Shown: positions 4,061-59,219 of the stretch, piece after piece | Layout of the letters: each line of letters starts with the position of its first letter | Position numbering within the stretch: position 1 is the stretch's first letter | The notes under the pieces: model-generated | What the model was told of the DNA's origin: nothing | What the model saw: the letters and a program-made list of their open reading frames with translations, nothing else | Database searches by the model: none | Made by a program: the position numbers and the translations under genes | DNA from: Alphaproteobacteria bacterium | GTDB lineage: Bacteria; Pseudomonadota; Alphaproteobacteria; JAWKYA01 | Length of the DNA: 64,000 nucleotides | Reading direction: 5' to 3' | Assembly (NCBI GenBank): GCA_041396725.1 | Contig: JAWKYA010000002.1 | Location: forward strand, 52,650 to 116,649

Positions 4061-5420
4061 CCCACTTCAATCTTAGAAAATTCAGCCAATGGATTCATGA
4101 GTACCTTCGAATACCAAAGCAACCGCGTAACGATTGCAGGCAGCGGCGGTTCAGGATCGTTAACGGGTTACCTTGTCGAAGAAAAACATCAATTGACGCC
4201 GTAGTTCCGCCATAGCCATCCTGCTCATCTCTTTGCAAGGCAGATTGAAGCCAAGGCCGCGCGGTCAACCTTCATATAGATCCGTTTCTTCCACGAGAGA
4301 AAGAGATTCTTCGCCAGCGAAGATAATGATGATTATCCCTTTTTCTCTTCGATATGCGTAACATGGTGGCGTGCCGATAGCTGCTAAGGAGATTGGCACC
4401 ATCCTCCGATACCGCGTTATCCAAGGGCATCAATCCTCAGCGAGAAGCCGTGAATATCTTCCCACCCATCGCAAAAACAGCTGTGACCAGATCGTAGACG
4501 TGGTGCTCGTTCTTCAAGGTAACTCTTCAATCGATTCGCCAAAATTCCATTAACTGCCGAAATTGCCTCTGACCAGCGTGATTCTGCTCACGTATGCTAC
4601 CAGCGGCAAAGAATTTTCCGGTAATGGCAATTCTGCCGTTTATTTTCACGGATAAGCTGATCAAACCTTGGTGGCCGCGCGGTATGCAAAGCATATGGAT
4701 CTTGAGCTCGTCGGTACTTTCCAATCGCAAAAAGCCTACTGTGCATTCAATTTGTCGGAGAGGGATAAGATAACCGCATTAGGCGAAGGCAACGATCTGA
4801 TGGGCTTATGGCATAATGATCCGCAATGGCTTTGCAACTTACCTCTTCTGGTGAAGAGCATAGTACTGACCCAAGATTCGTGAATTTCGGTACCTTCAAT
4901 CATGCTAGATGAAGATCTTTTCGCCAATGGCCAGTTCGCATACTTATCAATGTAGAACTAGAGAATATCGCCAAGATCGGCCGCCAAAATTCCAATCTTT
5001 TTACTATCCAGGACCGCACTCTAGCTTGGCATGAAAGTCATACTGGCAAGCTTAAAAGTGTATCAAGTTTGCTTTTGATCCGTCTCATAAAAAAGCAAAC
5101 CGGGTGCATCGGAGAGCCGAGCGCGTAAAACTCGCTCATATTCCAGCAACAATCAGTTTACCGCCATCCTTGGCGTCAATATTTGCAATTAACGACAAAA
5201 GAGGTACCATTCCACCTGCAGCCATCTCTATCGGAGAGAAGTACTTTGTTGCATTGCGCATAAAAAAGCCGTTACGACTTCAGTGGTAATGTCATAAACT
5301 TTGGTATCGATAAGTCAAATCAGGGCTACCACACTTTACGAGTCCGATAACCTCTTCCATCAGACTCCTGGATCGTCGCGAAGACGCAAATCCGATGACA
5401 AAGTTTTCTTGAAGTTGCAT

Positions 5421-6086
5421 CTAAGATCGATTGCTTTTCCGAGCTAATTCAAAATGACATGAGTTTTCTGAAGCTTTTGTTCGTAATCTTGAGAATCCGT
5501 CGACAGTAAAACTTGCTGGAGACATAAATCGATGCCCCCAAGTGGTGGCGCCAAAGGTGAGACTCTTGCCACCCCCCATATCGATACTCCCTGGCACTAC
5601 CTTATTATCAAACAGAGCAATGATAGAGTGCAGTGGCCGAACCCAGGTTTGAGTTTGAGCACCAAACTTCATTGATTTTGGCCATGGAAATTCACGGATG
5701 GATTTTACAATCAGTTCCGCCAGCAAATCTGTCGTCGCTTGGCCCTTAACGGTTTTCGACGAAAATAAGAAAGTTACCCCTTTGATATCGCGTTTTTCAC
5801 ATACATCTAGAGTCGTTTCTGCTGAGCGCAGAAATCCCTCGATGGCATTCGGGGGCGCATCGATACGCGGTCCTTTCCGTTCCACCGTACGATCGGATTG
5901 AACCACTGGAAGGCCATCGATAGTCACAACCAGTCGCCGTGGCGTCACATAACTTGCTGTATGTGAAAAAGTCACCCCGGCTTCTGTTAAACCAGTGGCT
6001 AGCAAACGACACAAATCCTCAGCGGCTTTTACTTGCATTCGCGCTGGGATCTCTTCACCGAATAATTCAAGAAAAAACTGAGGCAT
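5421..6086 (-). pseudogene. glyS: glycyl-tRNA synthetase beta subunit, N-terminal ~220 aa only; the remainder downstream is degraded
   Basis: The ORF starts [18 protein letters not shown] (the canonical GlyS N-terminus) but ends after 221 aa, whereas a full GlyS is about 690 aa. No minus-strand ORF of 60 aa or more continues it between about 4100 and 5420. Confidence 0.7.
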
Positions 6087-21168: not shown

Positions 21169-21360
21169 ATGACATCTGATCTTATACCCGGAAGCTACGT
21201 TCGTCATCCCGACAAACCTGAGTGGGGATTAGGTCAAGTGCAATCTGCGGTAGGATCGCGCGTTACCATAACCTTCCAACATAGCGGCAAACATTTGATC
21301 GATATACGCAGCGTGAGTTTGATCCTTCTAAGTGAGGATGATGTCCGCCAAGGCCTATAA
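21169..21360 (+). CDS. DUF3553 domain protein
   Basis: MTSDLIPGSYVRHPDKPEWGLGQVQSAVGSRVTITFQHSGK matches the short DUF3553 family that is typically found beside chpT. The start is reassigned from the 113-aa ORF that begins at 21019. Confidence 0.65.
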   Translation: MTSDLIPGSYVRHPDKPEWGLGQVQSAVGSRVTITFQHSGKHLIDIRSVSLILLSEDDVRQGL

Positions 21361-21608
21361 TCTACCAGCTGTTAGCTCTGTCCCGTTTTTCTTTACCCAT
21401 ATTAATCACATTGATAATAGCGCCCTCCTGAACGCTGGATTTGAAGTCTTCGAATCGAAGGGTTTTTATTGCAGGAAAACTCGAAATTTCAAATCAAAGT
21501 ACAGAGACTGCTTATATTTCCCACGCACGACCATCTACAACCCATATATCGAGCGGTGAGGGATACGCAGTACGCGCGGGATATAGAGATATGGGCCATA
21601 CGAATATG

Positions 21609-21642
21609 TCATATATCATATGATTAATCATATGATATATGA
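21609..21642. repeat. perfect 34-bp AT-rich palindrome (TCATATATCATATGATTAATCATATGATATATGA)
   Basis: Each position i is complementary to position 35-i across all 17 pairs (checked by hand). It lies in a 490-bp intergenic region between the DUF3553 gene and mobA. Confidence 0.9.
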
Positions 21643-21850
21643 ATATAATATATCCTCAAGTCCCATTTTATCGAGGCTTTATAAGAATAACCGCCGGCGC
21701 AGAAGACTATCTTCTTGCGCACCATCCGATTCTTTCCAAATAGCACCCTAGTTTAGTGCACGACACTAATCTCCAGGAAGATTGCCTGGTAATGGTTGTC
21801 AGTCTCAGAGCTAGAGGGATGCTTGAGATCATTTGAACAGGATATATTGG

Positions 21851-22471
21851 TTATTCAACATGCCCCGCCGTAAAACTTCGAGCAGCGCGCATTAAATCAC
21901 GCTGTGTGTTAATATTAAAAAAGGGGTCGATTTTGCTGACAGGAAACTCAACTATGACCGGCTTATAGTTCTGAGCCCAGGTAACGACTTTACGAACATT
22001 CCCGTGCACCAGAGCCTTATAAAGATCGGCCTTAAGATGTATGGACCATAATCCAACGGTTGCATGAACCTTCCCTTTGGATGCAGCCAACACAATCTGT
22101 GTTTGCGAGCCTTTCGCTTCACAAAGCCGCCGGCAGAGATCCTTGGGAAGAAAGGGCGTGTCGCTGGGAACTGTTACAATATAAGAAACTGCAGGCGATA
22201 GCGTATGCGCCCATTCCATTCCGGACAAAATCCCTGCTAAGGGTCCTAGGTGACCAGGGATCGTATCTGCGATAAAAGGCAATAAAAATTCTGTAAGCTG
22301 AGGGTAATCCCCATTTATATTGAGAGCTAAGTGATCTATCTGAGACTTAAGACAGTCGATTGCATAGGCAATCAGGGGTTTATCCGCACATATTTTGAGA
22401 AATTTATCTTCGCCCCCCATACGATGGGATAAACCGCCAGCTAAAATGACACCGGCAAGGCGAGAACTCAC
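21851..22471 (-). CDS. mobA: molybdenum cofactor guanylyltransferase
   Basis: Contains GVILAGGLSHRMGGEDK and the MobA fold, in about 200 aa. Confidence 0.85.
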   Translation of the reverse strand: MSSRLAGVILAGGLSHRMGGEDKFLKICADKPLIAYAIDCLKSQIDHLALNINGDYPQLTEFLLPFIADTIPGHLGPLAGILSGMEWAHTLSPAVSYIVTVPSDTPFLPKDLCRRLCEAKGSQTQIVLAASKGKVHATVGLWSIHLKADLYKALVHGNVRKVVTWAQNYKPVIVEFPVSKIDPFFNINTQRDLMRAARSFTAGHVE

Positions 22472-25589: not shown

Positions 25590-26240
25590 ATGAGCATCAA
25601 TCCTTCCGGAACATCTCCCGCGAACCCACCGATATTTAACCTCCCACGATCAGTTATTATCCTCATCGTTATAAATTTTGGAGTCTTTATCACCTTGCGA
25701 CTTTTGCCGGCAGCGGAGGCAGAGGGTTTACTGTTGAGCCTTGCTTTAATCCCAGCACGCGACAGTACCTTTTCCCTTGCAAGTGTACCTCCATTTCTTA
25801 CTCACGCCTTTACCCATTATGAGGGTACGCATCTTCTGATAAATATGGCATTTCTTGCCGCAGTCGGATCGGGGGTGCAACGTCGGCTTGGCACACTGCG
25901 ATTCATTATTTTCTACCTATTATGTGCCTTCGCTGGCGCCATAACACAGCTTGCCGTTACACCCGATTTAAATGCTCCCGTTATCGGAGCTTCGGCCGCC
26001 GTTTCTGGTCTCGTTGGAGCGATTGTGCGATTTGCCGTGCGTCACGATCAGCGATTTATGTTTGTCGTCCTGTGGCTGGGAGTTAATCTCATCTTTGGCT
26101 CAACGGCTCCAGCTATATTTGATCTTGATGTTTCTGTTGCTTGGGAAGCTCATATGGGTGGATTTTTTGTAGGCCTCATTTTATTCCCTATCTTCGATCC
26201 CTTACGTCAGCCACCTCCAAGCGTCAAAAGCGGTCCATAA
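25590..26240 (+). CDS. rhomboid family intramembrane serine protease
   Basis: Six TM segments. The catalytic Ser sits in GASAAVSG and the His in AHMGGFFVG. Confidence 0.75.
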   Translation: MSINPSGTSPANPPIFNLPRSVIILIVINFGVFITLRLLPAAEAEGLLLSLALIPARDSTFSLASVPPFLTHAFTHYEGTHLLINMAFLAAVGSGVQRRLGTLRFIIFYLLCAFAGAITQLAVTPDLNAPVIGASAAVSGLVGAIVRFAVRHDQRFMFVVLWLGVNLIFGSTAPAIFDLDVSVAWEAHMGGFFVGLILFPIFDPLRQPPPSVKSGP

Positions 26241-27075
26241 AGATCAGGTCGACGATCCCGGAAAACCCCCCAGCTCGCGCGTTGCGATCGGATCGCATCA
26301 AGATCAAAACTTGCTGTAATGACAGCCTCTTCAATCTGCCCTGCTTCTATTCGTTTTTCCCCAGTCGGGCCGGCGATAAAACTATGACCATAGAAGGTCA
26401 CTTCTGTCTCTATACCTTCCTCGCGGCCAACTCGGTTGCTCGCTACAAGCGGGATTAGATTAGCACCTGCATGCCCTTGCATAACCCGTTGCCAATGATC
26501 TTTAGAAAACAAACTTGGATCTTGAGGGCTTAGAACCAATCGCCGATAGGACCAACGAGGATCTCGGCGCCATTCAAAGTTAAACATCGCGCCGCCTCCG
26601 GGAACCACTGATCCCAGCATACCGCAGCGCCGAGCATCGCATAGCGCGTTTGGAAAACTTTAAATCCCGTATCCCCTGGACTAAAATAATATTTTTCTTG
26701 ATAGCCAGGTCCATCTGGGATGTGGCTTTTGCGGTAAAGCCCCACCATTTTCCCATCAGCATCAAAGATAGCCAAGCTATTGAAATAGGCATTGCGCGCT
26801 TTCTCAAAAAAACTAATAGGAAGCACGACGCCGAGTTTTGCCGCTAGATTCGAGAAACGCTCCAATATGGGATTATCTTCAACAGGTCGTGCCCATTTAA
26901 AAAATTCAGACCTTTGATCCTTACAGAAATAAGGTGTTTCAAAGAGCTCTTGCAGCAGGATAATTTGCGCCCCCGCCTCAGCTGCTTGGCGCACAAGATC
27001 CTCGGCGCATTTAAGATTGCCTTCATGATTGGGCGTGCACGCGAATTGGGTAGCCGCAAGGGTAACAACAGTCAT
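26207..27075 (-). pseudogene. aguB: N-carbamoylputrescine amidase, split by one frameshift near 26530-26620
   Basis: ORF 26530-27075 is the N-terminal CN-hydrolase part (IILLQELFETPYFC...VCWDQWFPEAAR). ORF 26207-26620 is the C-terminal part (DHWQRVMQGHAGANL...FYGHSFIAGPTGE...RDRRPDLY) in another frame. Together they make one ~290-aa AguB. Confidence 0.7.
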
Positions 27076-29332: not shown

Positions 29333-29394
29333 ATTCTTCTCCTAATAAACTTGGTCGACTACGGAGTAGTCGTAGGTAAAATAATTTTAAGCGC

Positions 29395-29520
29395 TGATAC
29401 AATAAGGGACCATGCGCCCCATAGAACTAAACCACCCCCGATCAGGATACCAATAAAAATCTTCAGAAGAAGCATAGGATCGATTAACCGGCGGTGCGGT
29501 ACTTTTTGCGATTCCATAAT
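29395..29520 (-). CDS. hypothetical small membrane protein (~41 aa)
   Basis: Short ORF below the 60-aa track cutoff, translating MESQKVPHRRLIDPMLLLKIFIGILIGGGLVLWGAWSLIVSA. It has a single TM helix. This is a speculative call. Confidence 0.2.
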
Positions 29521-29759
29521 ACCCTCTTTATTGATCAGTTATCCTTGATGCCCCTAAATACCCTACCTTAGGTATCTTACCTAGAATCATTCCTTTGTAC
29601 GACCGAACTTAGGGTTGTTTGTAAAGGTTATGAAAACGCTCTAAAAAAGCTGCTTCGGCGGTCTTTGTTGGCCATGGTACCAAATTAAAAACTGGCAAAA
29701 TAGGAAGCGTACCGAAGCTTTATCCATCCTTGAAGAAAATCCAGCAAAGATGCCGCGCC

Positions 29760-30221
29760 TCAGTGAGGCACCAAACGATCCGCTTGCTTGATGAGACGCT
29801 GGAGAATTTCCGGAGCCGCCGCGGGTAAACCGAATCGCAAAAATATGGCTCGCGATAAACGATGTTCAATCGTCTTATAACCCTGTCCAATAGCCTTTTT
29901 GAAAGGTGTGATAAGATCACTGATAACATATTCCGGTGCATCATGGAGAAGGGTCGTCAGTTGAGCTGACTTCAGAGGTTGAACGCTTAAATAATCAACC
30001 AAATCACAAACCAGAAGAGAATGTTGAGCTACGCTGAATGGGTATGCACCAATAGTTTGACCGTTCCAGCAGGGTATTCTTGCTAAGCCGTGAGCGATAT
30101 CTTCGATCTCTATATCGAGAGGCGACGGATCTAAAAGATCTAATCGTCGCCCACTAAGCATACGCTGCCATGCGCGCTGCGGCTTTTTCTCTATCGGCAT
30201 GTTCCAGAGCCCTGCGGCCAT
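29760..30221 (-). CDS. HD-domain phosphohydrolase (YfbR-like), possibly C-terminally truncated
   Basis: HD motif in YPFSVAQHSLLV...LLHDAPEYVISDLITPFK. At 153 aa it is shorter than typical family members (~190 aa). Confidence 0.5.
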   Translation of the reverse strand: MAAGLWNMPIEKKPQRAWQRMLSGRRLDLLDPSPLDIEIEDIAHGLARIPCWNGQTIGAYPFSVAQHSLLVCDLVDYLSVQPLKSAQLTTLLHDAPEYVISDLITPFKKAIGQGYKTIEHRLSRAIFLRFGLPAAAPEILQRLIKQADRLVPH

Positions 30222-31332
30222 AGTCTAAAAACAAACGTAGCCAAGCGACCATTGCCATTTACATACGGAACTTTGATTGCACCTCGCTCTCCTGCTTGTG
30301 GGTCTAGCGCAAAAAGCTTCTGCGCTTCGGGAATAATACTTGTTTCGCGCACATCTCCATCACCACTCCAAATGACCAGGCACTGCCCTGAGGTTGCGCG
30401 AACAGGTGGTATGTAGTGAGGATAGAGTGCCGACAAAAATCGTGATCCTGGAAACTGAAGCTTTTAAATCTCCGGCGATAAAATAAGGATAGTTATGGGC
30501 ATAGACTGTCCCGCCAACAAACCCTGCTGACCTTAATTGCTGCGCGATCTCATCATAAGGAATATGAAGGGGTGCCCATTTATTAGCACGACAAACCATA
30601 TAAGTGACAGCTAAAGCAATAGGAACGACAAGAGCGAGGCCAAAACCGTATAGATAGGCTTTAAAGGCAGTTTTTATATCCGATATTTTCAATCCGATAA
30701 AAGGCCCACAAGGGTAGCGGAAAAAGCAGAACATATAATGGATGCGCACGCAGGTCGTTCCGTCAGTAGAACCATCGAGACTGTCACAAGAACGACTGCA
30801 TTAGAATACCTACCAATTAAGCGGCCGAGCATTTGGCCTTCGTTCGTAGGTGCGGAGAAAGTTCGGAACAAGCATGCCAAAAGGGGAAGCAAAACCGCAA
30901 ATGGCAAGACAAAGCTTATAACAGCCTCGCCCCAGGCCCTGAGACCCATAAAAGCTTGGGTCAACCACTCCGTATCATTTGCTATCTGAAACTTTTGTAC
31001 CGTAACATCGCCCATGAGAGATCGCTGATCCAACAGCCATAATCCATGAGAGGTGCTATAATAGCGATGGCGATACTGGCGATTACTCAGAACGATGTAT
31101 AGATTGCTGAAGCTTTGGCAGGTAAAGCTTCTCCACAAGGCGACAGCCATAAAACAAACAAGAAAAATCGCGTAATTATATTGGCAAGCAGGCCCAGACC
31201 CATAGCAAATCCTAAGGCAAGGTACCGAGAAAACCGCCGTGTGGTATGAATTTGATAAAATACGTAAATTGTTGCCATTATCGCAGCCAGCAGCATGATA
31301 GAATGGGTGTAGGTGCGTATACTATCAGGCAA
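30191..31332 (-). pseudogene. ArnT/PMT-like membrane glycosyltransferase (GT83/GT39), fragmented into at least 4 frames
   Basis: Four consecutive minus-strand ORFs (31087-31332, 30689-31150, 30360-30749, 30191-30436) in different frames. Each encodes polytopic-membrane segments consistent with one ~480-aa ArnT-like protein, and it lies immediately downstream of a GT2 remnant, as in arnC-arnT pairs. Confidence 0.6.
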
Positions 31333-31705
31333 AATAATAGATTGCGAGTGGGCTAGGGGCTGGCAGCGATAATGAGTTTTTATTTGTAAATACAGTGTGC
31401 GAGGCGATCCTGGAAAAAGAAAATAACACCAAAGAACAAGAACTTTATCAAATAGCGCTCACTGCGGTAATGCCGAAAAAGATGCTCGGAGATAATGACC
31501 AGCCAGGTTGGCAAGACAGGGTTTGGTAGATGATACCCTGCAAGAAATCCCGATTGAGCGAATAAAATCTGTTCGGCATCATCGCACACTAGCGATGGAT
31601 AGGCAAAAGCACGCCAGAGAAAAAATCAAACCAAGATAAAGCGTAAGGAAGCTATAGAAGCCTTTGACGTTAAAGGCGATCAGCCATTGCGATCCAGCCT
31701 TTAGC

Positions 31706-32760
31706 CTAGAGCGCGGTACGCTTTTCAGCGTAGATCAACCACAAGTTCCGTGCATATATAAAGATTCCGAACATATTTCCTAAGATAAATACAAGATCCT
31801 TCCGATAAAGAGAATAAGCTAATAGAATTCCTCCACCTAAAATGCTGCAATACCAAAACATGATTGGGATCGTACTGCGTTTAGCGTACCGAAACAGCCA
31901 TTGCAAAATAAATCGAGCTGAAAAAAGAACCTGACCCGATAAACCAATAGCAATCCAAATAGTCTCTGTACTCATCACTTCTTCACCTTCATATCGCTTA
32001 AGTTTGCGACAACAGGTCGACGATACCGTCGCATAAAGGCAAGCCACACCGAACAAATCGACGATACCGACTAGGCCTCGGTCAATAATTCCATAATGAG
32101 ATTTTCCTTTTAATCGGGGTCGATTGACGACAGGAACTTCAATCAATGTATAGCCGCTTCGCTTAATTGTACTGGCAAAAAACGATGCATATTGTCGAAA
32201 ACAGGGAGCGCTAAAACGCCTCGCGCGGTAAACAGCCGCAACCGCTATCGCGTGCGCCATCCTTTAAGAGAAACTGTCCGAAACCGATTCGCAATCTTAG
32301 GGGTAAACACGCCAGCTTTCCCGTCATTCGAATTCTGCCTTACAGCAGAAACTAATCGCAGCATAGAGGTCAACTGAAGCATCCCGCGCAGCCAATAATT
32401 TGGATCTCCAGATGGAACATCTTGACCATCACCATCCATGGTCACTATCCACCCCTTCGGCCGCTGTTATCCCGGTAACCAAGCCTGCGGTTTTGCCGCA
32501 CTGCATCATATGACAGAGAACCCGCAGTTTGGGTGGTCCGATAAAGCCGATAAAGCTCGTCTCGGCTACTATCATCGCTACCGTCATCAACCACGATAAT
32601 CTCGCAATGCTCGTTAATAATCGAACGACTTAGAAAGGATAAAGTTGTATTAATTTCCGATAAAAGAGGTTCAATATTCTTCCAGCTTCGTTGTGCGCCA
32701 GGATCACAACGGACAAGCTTACCACCACAGGATCCCTATGAAATGCTGCCTAATCCCAGA
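31706..32760 (-). pseudogene. GT2 polyprenyl-phosphate glycosyltransferase (ArnC-like) with C-terminal lipid-A-disaccharide-synthase-N-like membrane domain, N-terminal part disrupted
   Basis: ORF 31706-32260 carries the GT2 C-terminus (GYTLIEVPVVNRPRLKGKSHYGI.DR) plus a three-helix membrane domain. Upstream in other frames there is DGDGQDVP (32245-32445) and an ...NIEPLLSEI......EIIVVDDG remnant around 32590-32700 interrupted by stops. Confidence 0.6.
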
Positions 32761-33006
32761 TTAGGATTATTAAAATAAATTCATCCTAGTTCATCTCCCT
32801 GCTCATGCCACAAGTTAGGTATACCATAGAAAAGTGATGCACATCACGCCGAAACCGTGTCAAATATCACTCAATTTGTGTGATGACCATCATTTCAAAA
32901 TTACCGCATCTATCTAAATCTTCGCACCTATGACGCAGAATTACACAGAGTACAAAGAGGTCTAAATGGTGCCGTCACCTAGCTCTCCCCGGTACTCGGT
33001 GCGGGC

Positions 33007-46300: not shown

Positions 46301-46529
46301 TCACTACATCGCAAGCCGTGTACATGTCGGCAATATTTACGTTAATCGCACCATAATCGGCGCCACCGTCGGCGTTCAGCCCTTCGGAGGCGAAGGTCTA
46401 TCCGGCACCGGTCCGAAAGCAGGTGGCCCCCATTATCTGCCCCGATTTGCAACCGAACGCACCCTCAGCATCAATACCGCAGCCGCTGGCGGAAATGCGT
46501 CGCTTCTGGCTTTAAGCGAAGAACCCTAA
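43386..46529 (+). CDS. putA: bifunctional proline dehydrogenase / L-glutamate gamma-semialdehyde dehydrogenase
   Basis: About 1047 aa. It has a PRODH beta8/alpha8 region, then an ALDH domain (FTGSTQTAW, EAGGQNAM, catalytic Cys in GQRCSALRVLFLQE). The start is at MTFIDQTF inside the longer ORF. Confidence 0.9.
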   Translation: MTFIDQTFPAASPERNTLRKALYMDEAAALRQLVNSIDLSSEVLHRIEARAISFVKKIRETEAERSGIDSLLQEFALSTDEGIALMCLAEALLRIPDSTTADKLIKDKVATADWEKHLGQSDKLLVNASAWTLMLTGKVLRLDNNASNDMDRALRRIVTRSGEPVIRQAITQAMRILGRQFVMGRTIDEALERAKTLEARGYRYSYDMLGEAARTMADADRYFESYRQAIVSIAKASHGRGPIEGPGISVKLSALHPRYEFAQKQRVIDELTPRLISLARQAAAANIGFCVDAEEAERLDLSLDLIKATALDSSLGSWQGFGLAVQAYQKRAPYVIDWLIALAREAKRPLCVRLVKGAYWDTEIKQAQVNSLPSYPVFTRKVATDVSYLACAQRLLGAGDLIFPQFATHNAHTLSAILEFANAHRDYEFQRLHGMGESLYEQIVDTDKLNRSCRIYAPVGSHEDLLAYLVRRLLENGANTSFVNRIAHAELPIERLVEDPIQRIHNLDYAPHPRIPLPSRLYGDERRNSKGLDLNDPLTVETLAQDMAVIWENRHWDSHDTPTHGTIDSIHDPTDTRRIVGKVIPATIDDVHTAVTKAAAAQPEWNERGAEARALILDRIADLYESHMVELMTLAVREAGKTLPDAIAEVREAVDFCRYYALRARTDFTKPELMPGPTGERNTLSLQGRGAFVCISPWNFPLAIFTGQIAAALAAGNTVLAKPAEQTPLIAGRAVALMYKAGIPKEVLHLLPGSGEDVGAPLVRDPRIAGVAFTGSTQTAWNIAEALAQRQGPIIPFIAETGGQNAMIVDSSALPEQVVADVVTSAFRSTGQRCSALRVLFLQEDIADHIETMLAGAMAELVVGDPGHLATDVGPVIDKDAQEALSRHLDWLAAHGRLIAQTPLPDSAEHGWFVAPTAYAIDRIDQLTQENFGPILHVIRYRGDQLNDIIHDINATGYGLTLGIHTRIDSAAHYIASRVHVGNIYVNRTIIGATVGVQPFGGEGLSGTGPKAGGPHYLPRFATERTLSINTAAAGGNASLLALSEEP

Positions 46530-50451: not shown

Positions 50452-52524
50452 ATGCCCTTCGGTACCACCAAGTCAGAAATCTTGAGATCGACCTGTCCTC
50501 ATGATTGTCCCTCGGTCTGCGCACTGGAAGTCGAACGACTAGATGCACAGCGGATCGGTAAAGTCCGAGGTGCGAAGACCATGCCTTATACTGCAGGGGT
50601 GATTTGTGCCAAGGTGGCACGCTATGCTGAACGCGTCCATCATCCCGCACGCCTTAGAACCCCGTTGCGCCGCATTGGACTTAAGGGCTGTGGTCCCGAA
50701 GGGTTTATACCTTTGTCATGGGATGATGCCTTGGACGAAATAGCCGAACAGTTCACCAAGGCTGCACAACGTTATGGCACGGAAACTGTGTGGCCGTTTT
50801 TCTATGCGGGAACCATGGGTCTGGTTCAACGTGACGGGATCGAGCGCTTACGACACGTCATGCGTTATTCGCAACAGCATTCGACGTATTGCGTTGCGCT
50901 CTCTAATGCTGGATGGGCTGCTGGCGTGGGTGATAGGCGTGGCGTCAATGCGCTTGAGATACCTGAGAGCGATCTTATCGTCATTTGGGGTGGCAATCCT
51001 GTGAATACCCAGGTCAATGTCATGACCTTGGTTGCAAAAGCTCAACGTCGAGGCGCTAAACTTGTGGTCATCGATCCTTACCGTACAGGCACTGCTGAGC
51101 AGGCCGATATGCACCTTGCGGTGCGACCTGGAACCGATGCTGCTCTTGCTTGCGCCGTCATGCATATTGCCTTTCGCGAGGGTCGGGCCGATCGCGCCTA
51201 TATGGCAAAATATACCGACGACCCCGCTGCCCTCGAAGCCCATGTCGCCACCCGAGATCCGAAATGGGCTGCCAAGATTACCGGCCTTGCCCCAAAAGAT
51301 ATCGAGGCCTTTGCCGATCTTTATACCCGCACCGCCAAAAGCTTTATCCGTATTGGCTATGGTTTCTCACGATCCAGGAACGGAGCACAGCAACTCCACG
51401 CCGTGTCATGCCTCCCCGCCGTAACCGGCGCTTGGCAACACCGGGGTGGTGGTGCCCTTTATTCCCAAAGCGGACTTTATGGGTTGAATATGTCATTGAT
51501 TAAGGGGCTCGACGCTCTCGATCCTACAACCCGCATTCTTGACCAGTCACGCATCGGATCCATCCTTTGCGGGAATAAAGATGATCTCGGTGCTGGGCCG
51601 CCGGTTACGGCTCTGCTGATCCAGAATACCAATCCGATGGTGGTTGCTCCCGATACCCATGCTGTTAAGCGAGGGTTTATGCGCAACGATCTTTTCACTT
51701 GCGTGCATGAACAGTTTCTGACGGATACGGCGCGGATGGCGGATATCGTTCTTCCCGCTACGACTTTTCTCGAACATGATGATTTCTATGTCGGGAGTGG
51801 TCATACCTATCTTCAAGTAGCCAAGGCGATCATCGCACCTTACGCGGAATGCCGCTCTAATCACGACGTCATTTGCACTCTAGCGAAACGCCTCGGCGCC
51901 ACCCACCCCGGCTTCTCCATGACCAGCTGGGAACTCTTGAATCAGACTCTACTAACCTCCGGTTACCCCTCGGCGGAAGAGATTCATGCCATGGGTTGGT
52001 ATGATCGCGCCGTTCCTGAGGATGAAGCGCATTTTCGCAACGGATTTGCCCACAAAGACGGTAAATTTCGTTTTAAAGCGGATTGGCGAGCGCTAGGTGC
52101 TAACAGCGTTGGGTTGTCTGCCTTACCAGATCATGTAGCGCTCATCGATGCGCCAACACCCGAACACCCCTTCCGTCTGGTAGCAGCCCCAGCGCGCACC
52201 TTCCTGAATACAAGTTTTACCGAAACCCCAGGATCTCAGGCACGAGAACGGCGGCCAACTGCAAAAATCCATCCTCAAGATTGTGATCATCTAGGCCTCA
52301 AACCCGATAGTCTGGTACGGATTGGCAATCATCAGGGGAGTATACTTATCCACATTCAGCCGAGCGAGGGTCAGCAACCTGGGGTTGTTGTTATCGAAAG
52401 TCTTTGGCCTAATGATGCTTTTATCGAAAAAATTGGGGTAAACTCGCTGATCAGTGCAGACCCTGGCCGACCAAACGGCGGGGGCGTTTTCCATGACACA
52501 GCCGTTTGGCTAAGAGCGGTATAA
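50452..52524 (+). CDS. molybdopterin-dependent oxidoreductase, MopB superfamily (N-terminal 4Fe-4S site)
   Basis: Contains CPHDCPSVC...C cluster-binding cysteines, molybdopterin-binding regions, and a C-terminal MopB_CT beta-barrel pattern, in 690 aa. The substrate is unknown. Confidence 0.8.
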   Translation: MPFGTTKSEILRSTCPHDCPSVCALEVERLDAQRIGKVRGAKTMPYTAGVICAKVARYAERVHHPARLRTPLRRIGLKGCGPEGFIPLSWDDALDEIAEQFTKAAQRYGTETVWPFFYAGTMGLVQRDGIERLRHVMRYSQQHSTYCVALSNAGWAAGVGDRRGVNALEIPESDLIVIWGGNPVNTQVNVMTLVAKAQRRGAKLVVIDPYRTGTAEQADMHLAVRPGTDAALACAVMHIAFREGRADRAYMAKYTDDPAALEAHVATRDPKWAAKITGLAPKDIEAFADLYTRTAKSFIRIGYGFSRSRNGAQQLHAVSCLPAVTGAWQHRGGGALYSQSGLYGLNMSLIKGLDALDPTTRILDQSRIGSILCGNKDDLGAGPPVTALLIQNTNPMVVAPDTHAVKRGFMRNDLFTCVHEQFLTDTARMADIVLPATTFLEHDDFYVGSGHTYLQVAKAIIAPYAECRSNHDVICTLAKRLGATHPGFSMTSWELLNQTLLTSGYPSAEEIHAMGWYDRAVPEDEAHFRNGFAHKDGKFRFKADWRALGANSVGLSALPDHVALIDAPTPEHPFRLVAAPARTFLNTSFTETPGSQARERRPTAKIHPQDCDHLGLKPDSLVRIGNHQGSILIHIQPSEGQQPGVVVIESLWPNDAFIEKIGVNSLISADPGRPNGGGVFHDTAVWLRAV

Positions 52525-52542: not shown

Positions 52543-53406
52543 ATGAGTGAAATTCTTTCTTCGCCTACCCCTCCCACAACCGCAACCCGTCAGGGCACTA
52601 CAGGACGCGTTCTTGTGGTTGGCAATGAGAAAGGGGGGTCTGGAAAATCAACCGCGGCGATTCATCTTGCTGTTGGTTTTTTGCAAAAAGGGATCCCCGT
52701 TGCGACGGTTGATATTGATTACCCCCAAGGCACCTTCACTCGGTATATGGAGAACCGCATTGCCCATATTGAGCGAACGGGTAAAAATCTGATCGTTCCC
52801 GAACATCATGTCATACCTCCGTCGACCCATACGACTGCTACAGATATGGAGCAGGATGAACGGCAACGCTATACCGCCGTCATTGATGAGCTCAAGCAAA
52901 GGTTTCCCTTAATCATTGTCGATACGCCTGGCAGTGTAACCTTTATGTCTCGCCTCGCTCATGGGCGAGCAGATGTTATTTTAACCCCGCTGAATGACAG
53001 TTTCATCGATCTTGATGTCGTCGCTCAGGTCGATTTGGTGAATTTTTCATCCCTTACCCCAAGCCACTATGCGAATATGGTCATGCAGGCGCGGGCACGG
53101 AATATGCGGCAAGGTAAAAAACCGGTCGAATGGATTGTCATGCGCAATCGCCTCTCGCCGATCGCCTCTCATAATAAGGTCCAAATGGCTAAGATACTGG
53201 AACTCCTTGGCCGTCGATTCGGATTCCGTAGCATTGCAGGGTTTTCCGAGCGCGTGGCTTTCCGTGAGCTTTTTCTGCAAGGGTTAACCCTTTTGGATGC
53301 AACCGGATCCAAAAAATCTTCATCCTACCTTGCGGCCAAGACTGAGGTGGATAATCTTCTTGCCATCTTTGAGTCTGTGCCAGCTACGACCCATTCCTCC
53401 GCCTAA
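52543..53406 (+). CDS. mipZ: division-plane positioning ATPase MipZ (ParA/MinD superfamily)
   Basis: VLVVGNEKGGSGKST deviant Walker A, IIVDTPGS, and LAHGRADVILTPLNDSFIDLD. It is collinear with Caulobacter MipZ over the whole length. Confidence 0.85.
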   Translation: MSEILSSPTPPTTATRQGTTGRVLVVGNEKGGSGKSTAAIHLAVGFLQKGIPVATVDIDYPQGTFTRYMENRIAHIERTGKNLIVPEHHVIPPSTHTTATDMEQDERQRYTAVIDELKQRFPLIIVDTPGSVTFMSRLAHGRADVILTPLNDSFIDLDVVAQVDLVNFSSLTPSHYANMVMQARARNMRQGKKPVEWIVMRNRLSPIASHNKVQMAKILELLGRRFGFRSIAGFSERVAFRELFLQGLTLLDATGSKKSSSYLAAKTEVDNLLAIFESVPATTHSSA

Positions 53407-53512
53407 ACCGGGCCTTACGTATCTTTCTTGCCCCCGAGACTTTGACTGGTTAAATTGCCGCTCATTCATCGGCCGAAGATATTGCGACGGGTTAACAAGG
53501 ATATAGCATACG

Positions 53513-53767
53513 ATGACCGCACGGTCCGAACTTCCGCGCGAAATCGCGGCACTAAGTTTTGAAGACGCCTTAAAAGAGCTCGAACAGATCGTTCGTCGAC
53601 TTGAAGACGGATCTGCCAAGCTGGATGAGGCGATCGCCGCCTATGAGCGCGGGGCTCTTCTGAAGCGGCATTGCGAAACCAAGCTGGCTGAAGCCAAGGC
53701 TAAAATCGATACGATTGCCTTGGACAGCAATGGAACGCCGAGCATCGGTAAAAGCGATAGTTTCTAA
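53513..53767 (+). CDS. xseB: exodeoxyribonuclease VII small subunit
   Basis: 84 aa, with LSFEDALKELEQIVRRLEDG...LDEAIAAYERG. Confidence 0.9.
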   Translation: MTARSELPREIAALSFEDALKELEQIVRRLEDGSAKLDEAIAAYERGALLKRHCETKLAEAKAKIDTIALDSNGTPSIGKSDSF

Positions 53768-53783
53768 CAAAATTTAGCACGAA

Positions 53784-57924: not shown

Positions 57925-59219
57925 ATGCGGAAACGGTCCTCGGTGCTTTCCTCAAAAAATTTAAGTGAAGAAACTCTTATTGAGATCGAGGACTTAGGGA
58001 GGCGTGGGGATGGGGTTGTCAGAATCAATGGGCAAGCTCTTCACGTTCCTCTCACCCTACCGGGCGACCAGTTAAAGCTTCGCTATGATCTTAAGACACT
58101 GCGCCCTGCGGAATTCTCCCTTATAAAACCGAGCGCCCTGCGCGTTCATGCCCCTTGCCCCCATTTCTCCGCTTGTGGCGGCTGCCAGTTGCAACATTTC
58201 GCCGAGCTACCGTACCGTCAATGGAAGCGCCGATTGGTTATCGACGCTGTGATGCGTGCTGGCGGTAATCCCTCGGTCGTTACCGATATCGTTAGCGTAC
58301 CCACAACCAGCCGGCGCCGCGCAGTTCTTACAGCGAAAAAATATGGTGAGCACCTTCGTGTTGGATTTTATCGCCGCCACGAACATGTCATCGAGGATAT
58401 GACTCAATGCTTAATCCTCGCACCGCCATTGGCAAATCTTCTGCCCGCACTTCGTGCCAGTCTCTCTTCCGAGATCGACCTGCCAGAAATGCGGATTACG
58501 GCAACAGCTACAGAAAGAGGGGTCGATCTGATCATCGATGCTGAGCGACCTCTAGATTTAAGGTTACGTGAGAAATTTGCTCAGTTCGCGCACGATGAAG
58601 ATCTAGCCCGGATTTCGTGGCAGCAGAATCTCAGATGCCCGAGCCCATCTCCATACGCCGTACCCCAATTGTGATTTTTGGCAGAATCCCCGTCGCCTTA
58701 CCACCCGGTATCTTTTTACAGCCCAGTATTGAAGGTGGCGCCCTCCTTCAGGCTTTCGTGAACGAAGCTATCCCGGTTCATGCCTCACGTGTTGCCGATC
58801 TTTATGCCGGCTGCGGGCCTTTTACCTTTACGCTTGCAGGACGAACTATCGTCCATGCGGTTGAAGAAAACACCGAAGCAATCGGAGCCTTAAGCGCTGC
58901 ATCGCGGCGCGCTGGGCTTGTCCCTTGGGTAACCGCCGAACAGCGCGATCTTGCACGCCGCCCCCTCCTCCCCGATGAGTTGGCGGGATTCGATGCAGTC
59001 ATTTTTGATCCACCGCGCAGCGGCGCTTCGGCACAAGCGGCCACCTTGGCCGCATCGCCCGTCCCGCTTGTAATCGCCATCTCCTGTAATCCAGCAACCT
59101 TTGCTCGTGATGCACGAACTCTGATGGCTGGGGGCTACATCTTGAAAAAAGTTATGCCACTGGATCAATTCCCATGGTCCGCCCATGTGGAGTTAGCCGC
59201 ACAATTTATCAAGCCTTAA
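57925..59219 (+). pseudogene. 23S rRNA (uracil-C5)-methyltransferase RlmD/RumA-like, split into two frames at about 58617-58674
   Basis: ORF 57925-58674 has a TRAM domain and a CPHFSACGGCQLQH Fe-S cysteine cluster. ORF 58617-59219 (+2 frame) has the SAM methyltransferase domain (DLYAGCGPFT...FDPPRSGA...ISCNPATFARD). Together they reconstruct one ~430-aa enzyme. Confidence 0.65.

Follow-up and report, generated by a model that had tools for sequence, protein, structure and literature searches.

A truncated glyS in an alphaproteobacterial metagenome-assembled genome is very probably an uncorrected noisy stretch of the assembly

Introduction

In Escherichia coli, glycyl-tRNA synthetase (GlyRS) is an alpha2beta2 enzyme (PDB 7EIV/7YSE) whose alpha-subunit gene, glyQ, is directly followed by the beta-subunit gene, glyS, the stop codon of the former overlapping the start codon of the latter. 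The beta subunit binds tRNA-Gly at its acceptor stem and its anticodon, by means of the HD and anticodon-binding domains (PMC9908026). The same arrangement of the two genes, overlapping codons included, occurs in the window, i.e., the whole 64-kb stretch of alphaproteobacterial DNA analysed here; in contrast with the E. coli gene, however, the glyS deposited for the window is in frame only in its N-terminal part, and its HD and anticodon-binding domains are out of frame. With the tRNA-binding domains out of frame, the deposited open reading frame (ORF) of 221 aa would, judging from its sequence, be unable to support aminoacylation. If the truncation were true, an essential aminoacyl-tRNA synthetase subunit would have been lost, which would call for unusual compensation or dependence on a host.

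Two described kinds of broken gene lend themselves to comparison. False pseudogenes arising from uncorrected long reads resemble the window in that indels of 1-2 nt dominate, deletions outnumber insertions, the edges of the damage are unrelated to genes and the sequence elsewhere is clean, and in that an independent, k-mer-based assembly lacks the lesions (here over an overlap of 68 nt); the window differs from them in its error of ~15%, which is that of raw reads and not of a polished consensus, over patches of 2-3.5 kb. The pseudogenes in the reductive genomes of the Candidatus Burkholderia leaf symbionts likewise combine multiple frameshifts and stops with a retained overall length (PMC6054270). 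That set, however, is dominated by substitutions and holds 696 indels in 151 pseudogenes, many of them deletions of more than 15 nt (PMC6054270), whereas the window has ~200 indels within 3.5 kb, none longer than 6 nt, and its damage is not delimited by genes.

Results

An ordinary gene order with an intact glyQ

The gene order glyQ-glyS-ppdK-GST in the window (Table 1) is ordinary for alphaproteobacteria, and the ORFs correspond to the deposited proteins MEZ5647420, -421, -424 and -425 of a metagenome-assembled genome (MAG) named 'Alphaproteobacteria bacterium' (locus tags R3E60_), where they lie on a contig of 121,821 bp. The same order, running from the methyltransferase and the small ORF through glyQ, glyS and ppdK to the glutathione S-transferase (GST), was found in contigs L001 and L082 (JGI) and L162 and L165 (Logan). 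The relatives, including L162-L167, form one tight sister clade, recovered by a metagenome scan (L082) and as members of the GlyQ cluster (L162-L167); no closer lineage was found, GTDB representative genomes reaching at most 73% GlyQ identity. GlyQ is full length, as the initial annotation had stated, 81-84% identical to the sister clade, with long invariant blocks across most of the protein and 0 indels in nucleotide alignments with three references.

Table 1. Features of the glyQ-glyS-ppdK locus in the window (positions are those of the window).
Feature	Coordinates	Strand	Remarks
Methyltransferase	8167-7388	minus	
Small ORF, 72-74 aa in window and relatives	7360-7136	minus	Between methyltransferase and glyQ
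glyQ (GlyRS alpha subunit), 324 aa, intact	7060-6086	minus	Pfam PF02091 1-277/278, E=6e-143
glyS ORF as deposited, 221 aa, MEZ5647424.1	6086-5421	minus	PF02092
Frame-broken GlyS remnants, codons ~198-692	5495-4060	minus	Frameshift-aware alignment
Damaged stretch, ~3.5 kb, contiguous	about 5495 to 1985		Nucleotide alignments (L082, L162, L001), MAFFT profile, frameshift-aware alignments
Frame-broken PpdK remnants, codons 1 to ~668-700	4057-1985	minus	Frameshift-aware alignment
ORF deposited as 'putative PEP-binding protein', 218 aa, MEZ5647421.1 (ppdK 3' end)	2064-1408	minus	
Glutathione S-transferase (GST), intact	1385-747	minus	Anchor for Logan contig L168

In the window, the N-terminus of the small ORF is hydrophobic and its C-terminus Cys-rich (ECPVCK...NCGQKGCPY); counterparts lie at 5,234-5,452 of L001 and in L163, L164 and L166, and the gene calls of the relatives have no Pfam match. 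In asnB, which lies at the window's left end, a suspected stop codon is absent, the frame being open over 2-736.

All relatives examined have intact glyS and ppdK, with the exception of a single 1-nt frameshift in L001. L082, L162 and L165 each have one glyS of 692 aa and a ppdK of 891 aa. In L001, glyS is called in two pieces (179 + 523 aa) owing to one extra base in a CCCGGG run (~6,989), and the gene is otherwise 92% identical to the intact one of L082; the extra base likely stems from an error in sequencing or from a lesion that arose very recently. An apparently faster evolution of GlyS in L001 (84-88% identity, as against 95-97% for its neighbours) was rejected as an artefact of tblastn extension in the wrong frame, the true identity being 92%.

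Remnants of the whole of glyS lie downstream of the truncated ORF

The initial annotation had described glyS as truncated after ~220 aa, with no continuous frame between about 4100 and 5420, and both observations are correct. The 221-codon ORF matches PF02092 only over positions 1-207 of 536 (E=4.8e-46), and from 5420 to 4060 the longest open frame has 67 codons; between the 221-aa and the 218-aa ORF, about 3.3 kb are without an open frame. Codons 1 to ~197 of the deposited ORF are clean GlyS, and its last ~24 codons are out-of-frame read-through past the first indel. Against the E. coli beta subunit, the 199 clean aa at the N-terminus match residues 6-203 (E=5e-23).

A frameshift-aware protein-to-DNA alignment with the GlyS of L082 showed that all 692 codons have left collinear remnants, which extend from 6086 to 4060. 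Neither a stop nor a change of frame occurs in codons 1-198, which are 73% identical to L082; in codons 199-692 there are about 24 changes of frame and about 6 stops, and identity after frame correction is ~56%. The frame-corrected translation covers PF02092 over positions 1-535 of 536 (E=1.7e-85); PF05746 is not reported for it, and the remnants align collinearly to L082 aa 580-692 (FFDKVTVN, AEFSKIE). The two ORFs of 63 and 67 aa on the minus strand (4736-4927 and 4527-4730), which had been taken as unrelated, in fact carry GlyS remnants, e.g., SPNAVILSLSDKLN and RIAITGKFFAAG. Remnants of the full gene thus tile the region, which the initial annotation had named as an outcome that would speak against a truncation; they do not, however, lie in one frame. 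An uninterrupted GlyS ORF of ~690 aa is absent from the deposited sequence, and this absence is probably an artefact of the record.

The best database proteins for the frame-corrected GlyS are those of the sister clade at 53-55%, the next best reaching 42%, and the same clade is nearest for the flanking genes. A search of the protein database with frame-corrected queries did not find an intact GlyS of the same strain, and the deposited 221-aa fragment is absent from the contig index. There is no second glyS in the 64-kb window, tblastn with an intact relative's GlyS matching this locus only; a 690-aa ORF at 50452-52524 was considered as a candidate and rejected, being a molybdopterin oxidoreductase.

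The damage crosses into ppdK

The damage goes on through three quarters of the adjoining ppdK to about 1985, which the initial annotation had not noticed. In a frameshift-aware alignment, PpdK remnants run from 4057 to 1411; the frame changes about 33 times and about 6 stops occur before the C-terminus, which is clean, and the frame-corrected translation recovers the Pfam domains PPDK_N, PEP-utilizers and PEP-utilizers_C. Of the PEP-utilizers_C profile, the deposited 218-aa ORF covers no more than the last 176 positions, and it is clean only below about 1985.

The contrast between the clean and the broken parts is also seen in conserved residues, scored at a threshold of >=90% conservation among 120 GlyS and 62 PpdK homologues. 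Within GlyS aa 1-200, 41 of the 43 such residues are retained, as are 82 of 84 in PpdK aa 701-891; inside the patch, the retained share falls to about 62-65% in GlyS and PpdK. Since region 199-692 is more conserved than region 1-198 in pairs of normal GlyS proteins (ratio 1.16), the drop within the patch represents excess change and not ordinary variability.

Sharp edges and an indel-dominated spectrum

The patch is contiguous, its edges at about 5495 and about 1987 are abrupt and both lie inside genes, and the glyS/ppdK junction is crossed. Aligned with L082, L162 and L001, the patch has 7-17 gap openings per 200 nt, compared with 0 in clean gene bodies. No indels occur in glyS codons 1-197 or ppdK codons ~700-891. 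Relative to L082, gap openings number 55-64 per kb in the intervening block and 5-6 per kb in the flanks; identity across aligned columns is barely lower (0.68-0.71 in the patch, 0.71-0.73 in the flanks, both against L082). Indels dominate the spectrum: of ~200, 60% are of 1 nt, 25% of 2 nt and 9% of 3 nt, the longest being 6 nt, and deletions (120) exceed insertions (80) relative to L082. Overall length is kept, with 6315 nt from 7060 to 746 in the window and 6384 nt in L001, i.e., there is no large deletion.

Raw long-read error, with its nanopore-like excess of deletions, fits this spectrum. When simulated damage was applied to the clean flanks and scored as the real data were, about 10% indels per nt and 4-8% substitutions were needed to reach the observed values. 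Codon-level alignment gave more substitutions than indels, and the nucleotide-level simulation indicates that this excess consists of indels absorbed as mismatches. The transition/transversion ratio of the patch resembles that of the clean parts. Homopolymer run-length depletion, a nanopore signature, was not seen, run lengths in the patch being no different from those in the rest of the window. In nature, bacterial indel rates are ~10x below substitution rates, and 23 of the 104 deletions in a natural pseudogene set exceed 15 nt (PMC6054270); at that rate, the chance of zero long deletions among 120 is, by our own calculation, ~1e-13.

An independent contig of the same strain lacks the lesions where it overlaps the patch

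An exact look-up of 14 window proteins in Logan found the GST only, on a contig of 1810 bp (L168, from SRR28338156, for which a literature search found no publication) that aligns to window 2052 to 242. Over 1984 to 242, there are 0 differences between L168 and the window in 1743 nt. Over 2052-1985, which is all that L168 covers of the patch (68 nt of 3.5 kb), the window departs from L168 at 5 mismatches and carries three insertions, one each of 3, 2 and 1 nt. If differences arose at a uniform rate, such clustering would be expected with a probability of ~4e-12 (again our own calculation).

L168 lacks all 8 of these lesions and translates to an intact PpdK segment, and at every site where it differs from the window it agrees with the sister clade in base and gap pattern. 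It is nevertheless only 77% identical to the sister clade over these 70 nt, and is thus not a chimera with these outgroups. Given 0 differences over the 1.7-kb flank, a divergence of 12% next door cannot be by descent. On this comparison of sequences, the window version of 2052-1985 is erroneous, or else hypermutated.

Other broken stretches in the window

At least two further stretches of the window carry multiple frameshifts; the one mapped against a homologue is that of an ABC permease (49,435 to 47,781, minus strand). Compared with a homologue of 564 aa, aa 1-243 are clean, and at least 11 frame changes follow from ~48,690. Beyond it, from ~47,780 to 46,530, down to the putA stop at 46,529, ~1.2 kb hold no recognisable ORF or Pfam match. 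The mapped patches, i.e., those of glyS-ppdK and the permease, begin inside genes and have long clean sequence between them, which fits a technical cause better than gene-by-gene decay.

A stretch at 30,360-32,900 (minus strand) is probably another noisy patch. There, only a C-terminal ORF of 184 aa (31,706-32,260) is intact in a gene with GT2 and LAB_N domains, and an ArnT/PMT_2-like gene lies in at least four pieces (~30.4-32.9 kb).

Smaller irregularities were also seen. Two 1-nt insertions (~26,540-26,570), separated by ~30 nt and not located in long homopolymers, divide a CN-hydrolase gene (26,207-27,075, minus strand) into pieces of 181 and 137 aa, and there is no PGAP protein accession between the neighbours of this gene. 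Overlapping ORFs of 249 and 200 aa at 57,925-59,219 (plus strand; the first is MEZ5647481, R3E60_00610) may be one frameshift-split gene; around ~58,650, in a gene resembling tRNA U5-methyltransferases, the second piece matches the family and the first has no Pfam match. Three further segments (21,358-21,853, 29,342-29,762 and 53,404-53,777), of 370-500 nt each, have no open frame of at least 110 codons and may be intergenic or damaged.

Discussion

The truncation of glyS is very probably an uncorrected noisy stretch of the MAG assembly that resembles raw long-read sequence. The patch from about 5495 to 1985 would be low-quality sequence of the kind that long reads give when raw or scarcely corrected and left unpolished, possibly in a region of low coverage or where one noisy read spanned a gap. 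Errors of ~15% in the patch, mostly indels of 1-2 nt, would have shattered glyS over its 3' two thirds and ppdK over its 5' three quarters, and gene callers would hence report a 'GlyS' of 221 aa and a 'PEP-binding protein' of 218 aa. We infer that the remaining 3.4 kb of the patch, beyond the overlap with L168, are equally erroneous and that long reads were the source. Among the possibilities raised by the initial annotation, an assembly frameshift came closest to the truth; what it missed was the scale, which is not one or two indels but ~200 small ones plus miscalls across glyS and ppdK.

The initial annotation had also raised a real loss of glyS. In such a pseudogenisation, the part of GlyS that binds tRNA would be gone from the lineage, together with most of PpdK, a second GlyRS or a host would compensate, and GlyQ and an N-terminal GlyS fragment would be under selection. 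The frames are indeed broken in the deposited record, GlyQ and GlyS aa 1-197 look fully conserved, and the several other broken genes of the window could suggest a degrading genome. Decay should, however, hit a whole gene, whereas glyS and ppdK each keep one pristine end and are damaged in one block over their junction that ignores gene borders; the indel-to-substitution ratio and the absence of any indel above 6 nt among ~200 are unlike those of natural pseudogenes; and the retained half of the PpdK TIM-barrel has no plausible function. Moreover, L168, which matches the flank without a single difference, is undamaged inside the patch, a pattern that vertical decay cannot yield. A real loss is therefore not supported, and we consider pseudogenisation quite unlikely. 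The more specific version of it, in which the lesions are real, the tRNA-binding two thirds of GlyS are lost, and GlyQ and a ~200-aa N-terminal beta fragment are under purifying selection, is rated lower still.

The two versions of window 2052-1985 within otherwise identical sequence would also be expected if a real, locally hypermutated or recombinant allele coexisted in the population with the intact allele of L168. Yet patch and clean parts have a similar transition/transversion ratio, every comparable patch elsewhere in the window would require an event of its own, and we know of no mutational process that gives ~10% indels of 1-2 nt plus substitutions over 3.5 kb; such an allele is accordingly very unlikely. 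A split glyS, or programmed ribosomal frameshifting giving a functional GlyS from pieces, could draw on the glyS of L001, which is also called in two pieces, but that split is a single 1-nt insertion, and L082, L162 and L165 have one 692-aa ORF. In the window, such a mechanism would have to change frame at least 24 times and read through several stops, and no intact ORF follows downstream, none exceeding 67 aa; this possibility, which the initial annotation had left standing, is almost certainly wrong.

Were the lesions real, glycylation would fall to another or a host-supplied enzyme, and a complex of GlyQ with a mini-beta subunit would have a new role. With the patch read as an uncorrected noisy stretch of assembly, the organism most likely has a normal GlyS of 692 aa and an ordinary alpha2beta2 GlyRS. 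The locus then has cautionary value: a public MAG (MEZ56474xx, R3E60_) holds kilobase stretches of raw-read-quality sequence, and such stretches make false truncated proteins and pseudogenes, by which metabolic reconstructions, counts of pseudogenes and claims that a gene has been lost can all be led astray.
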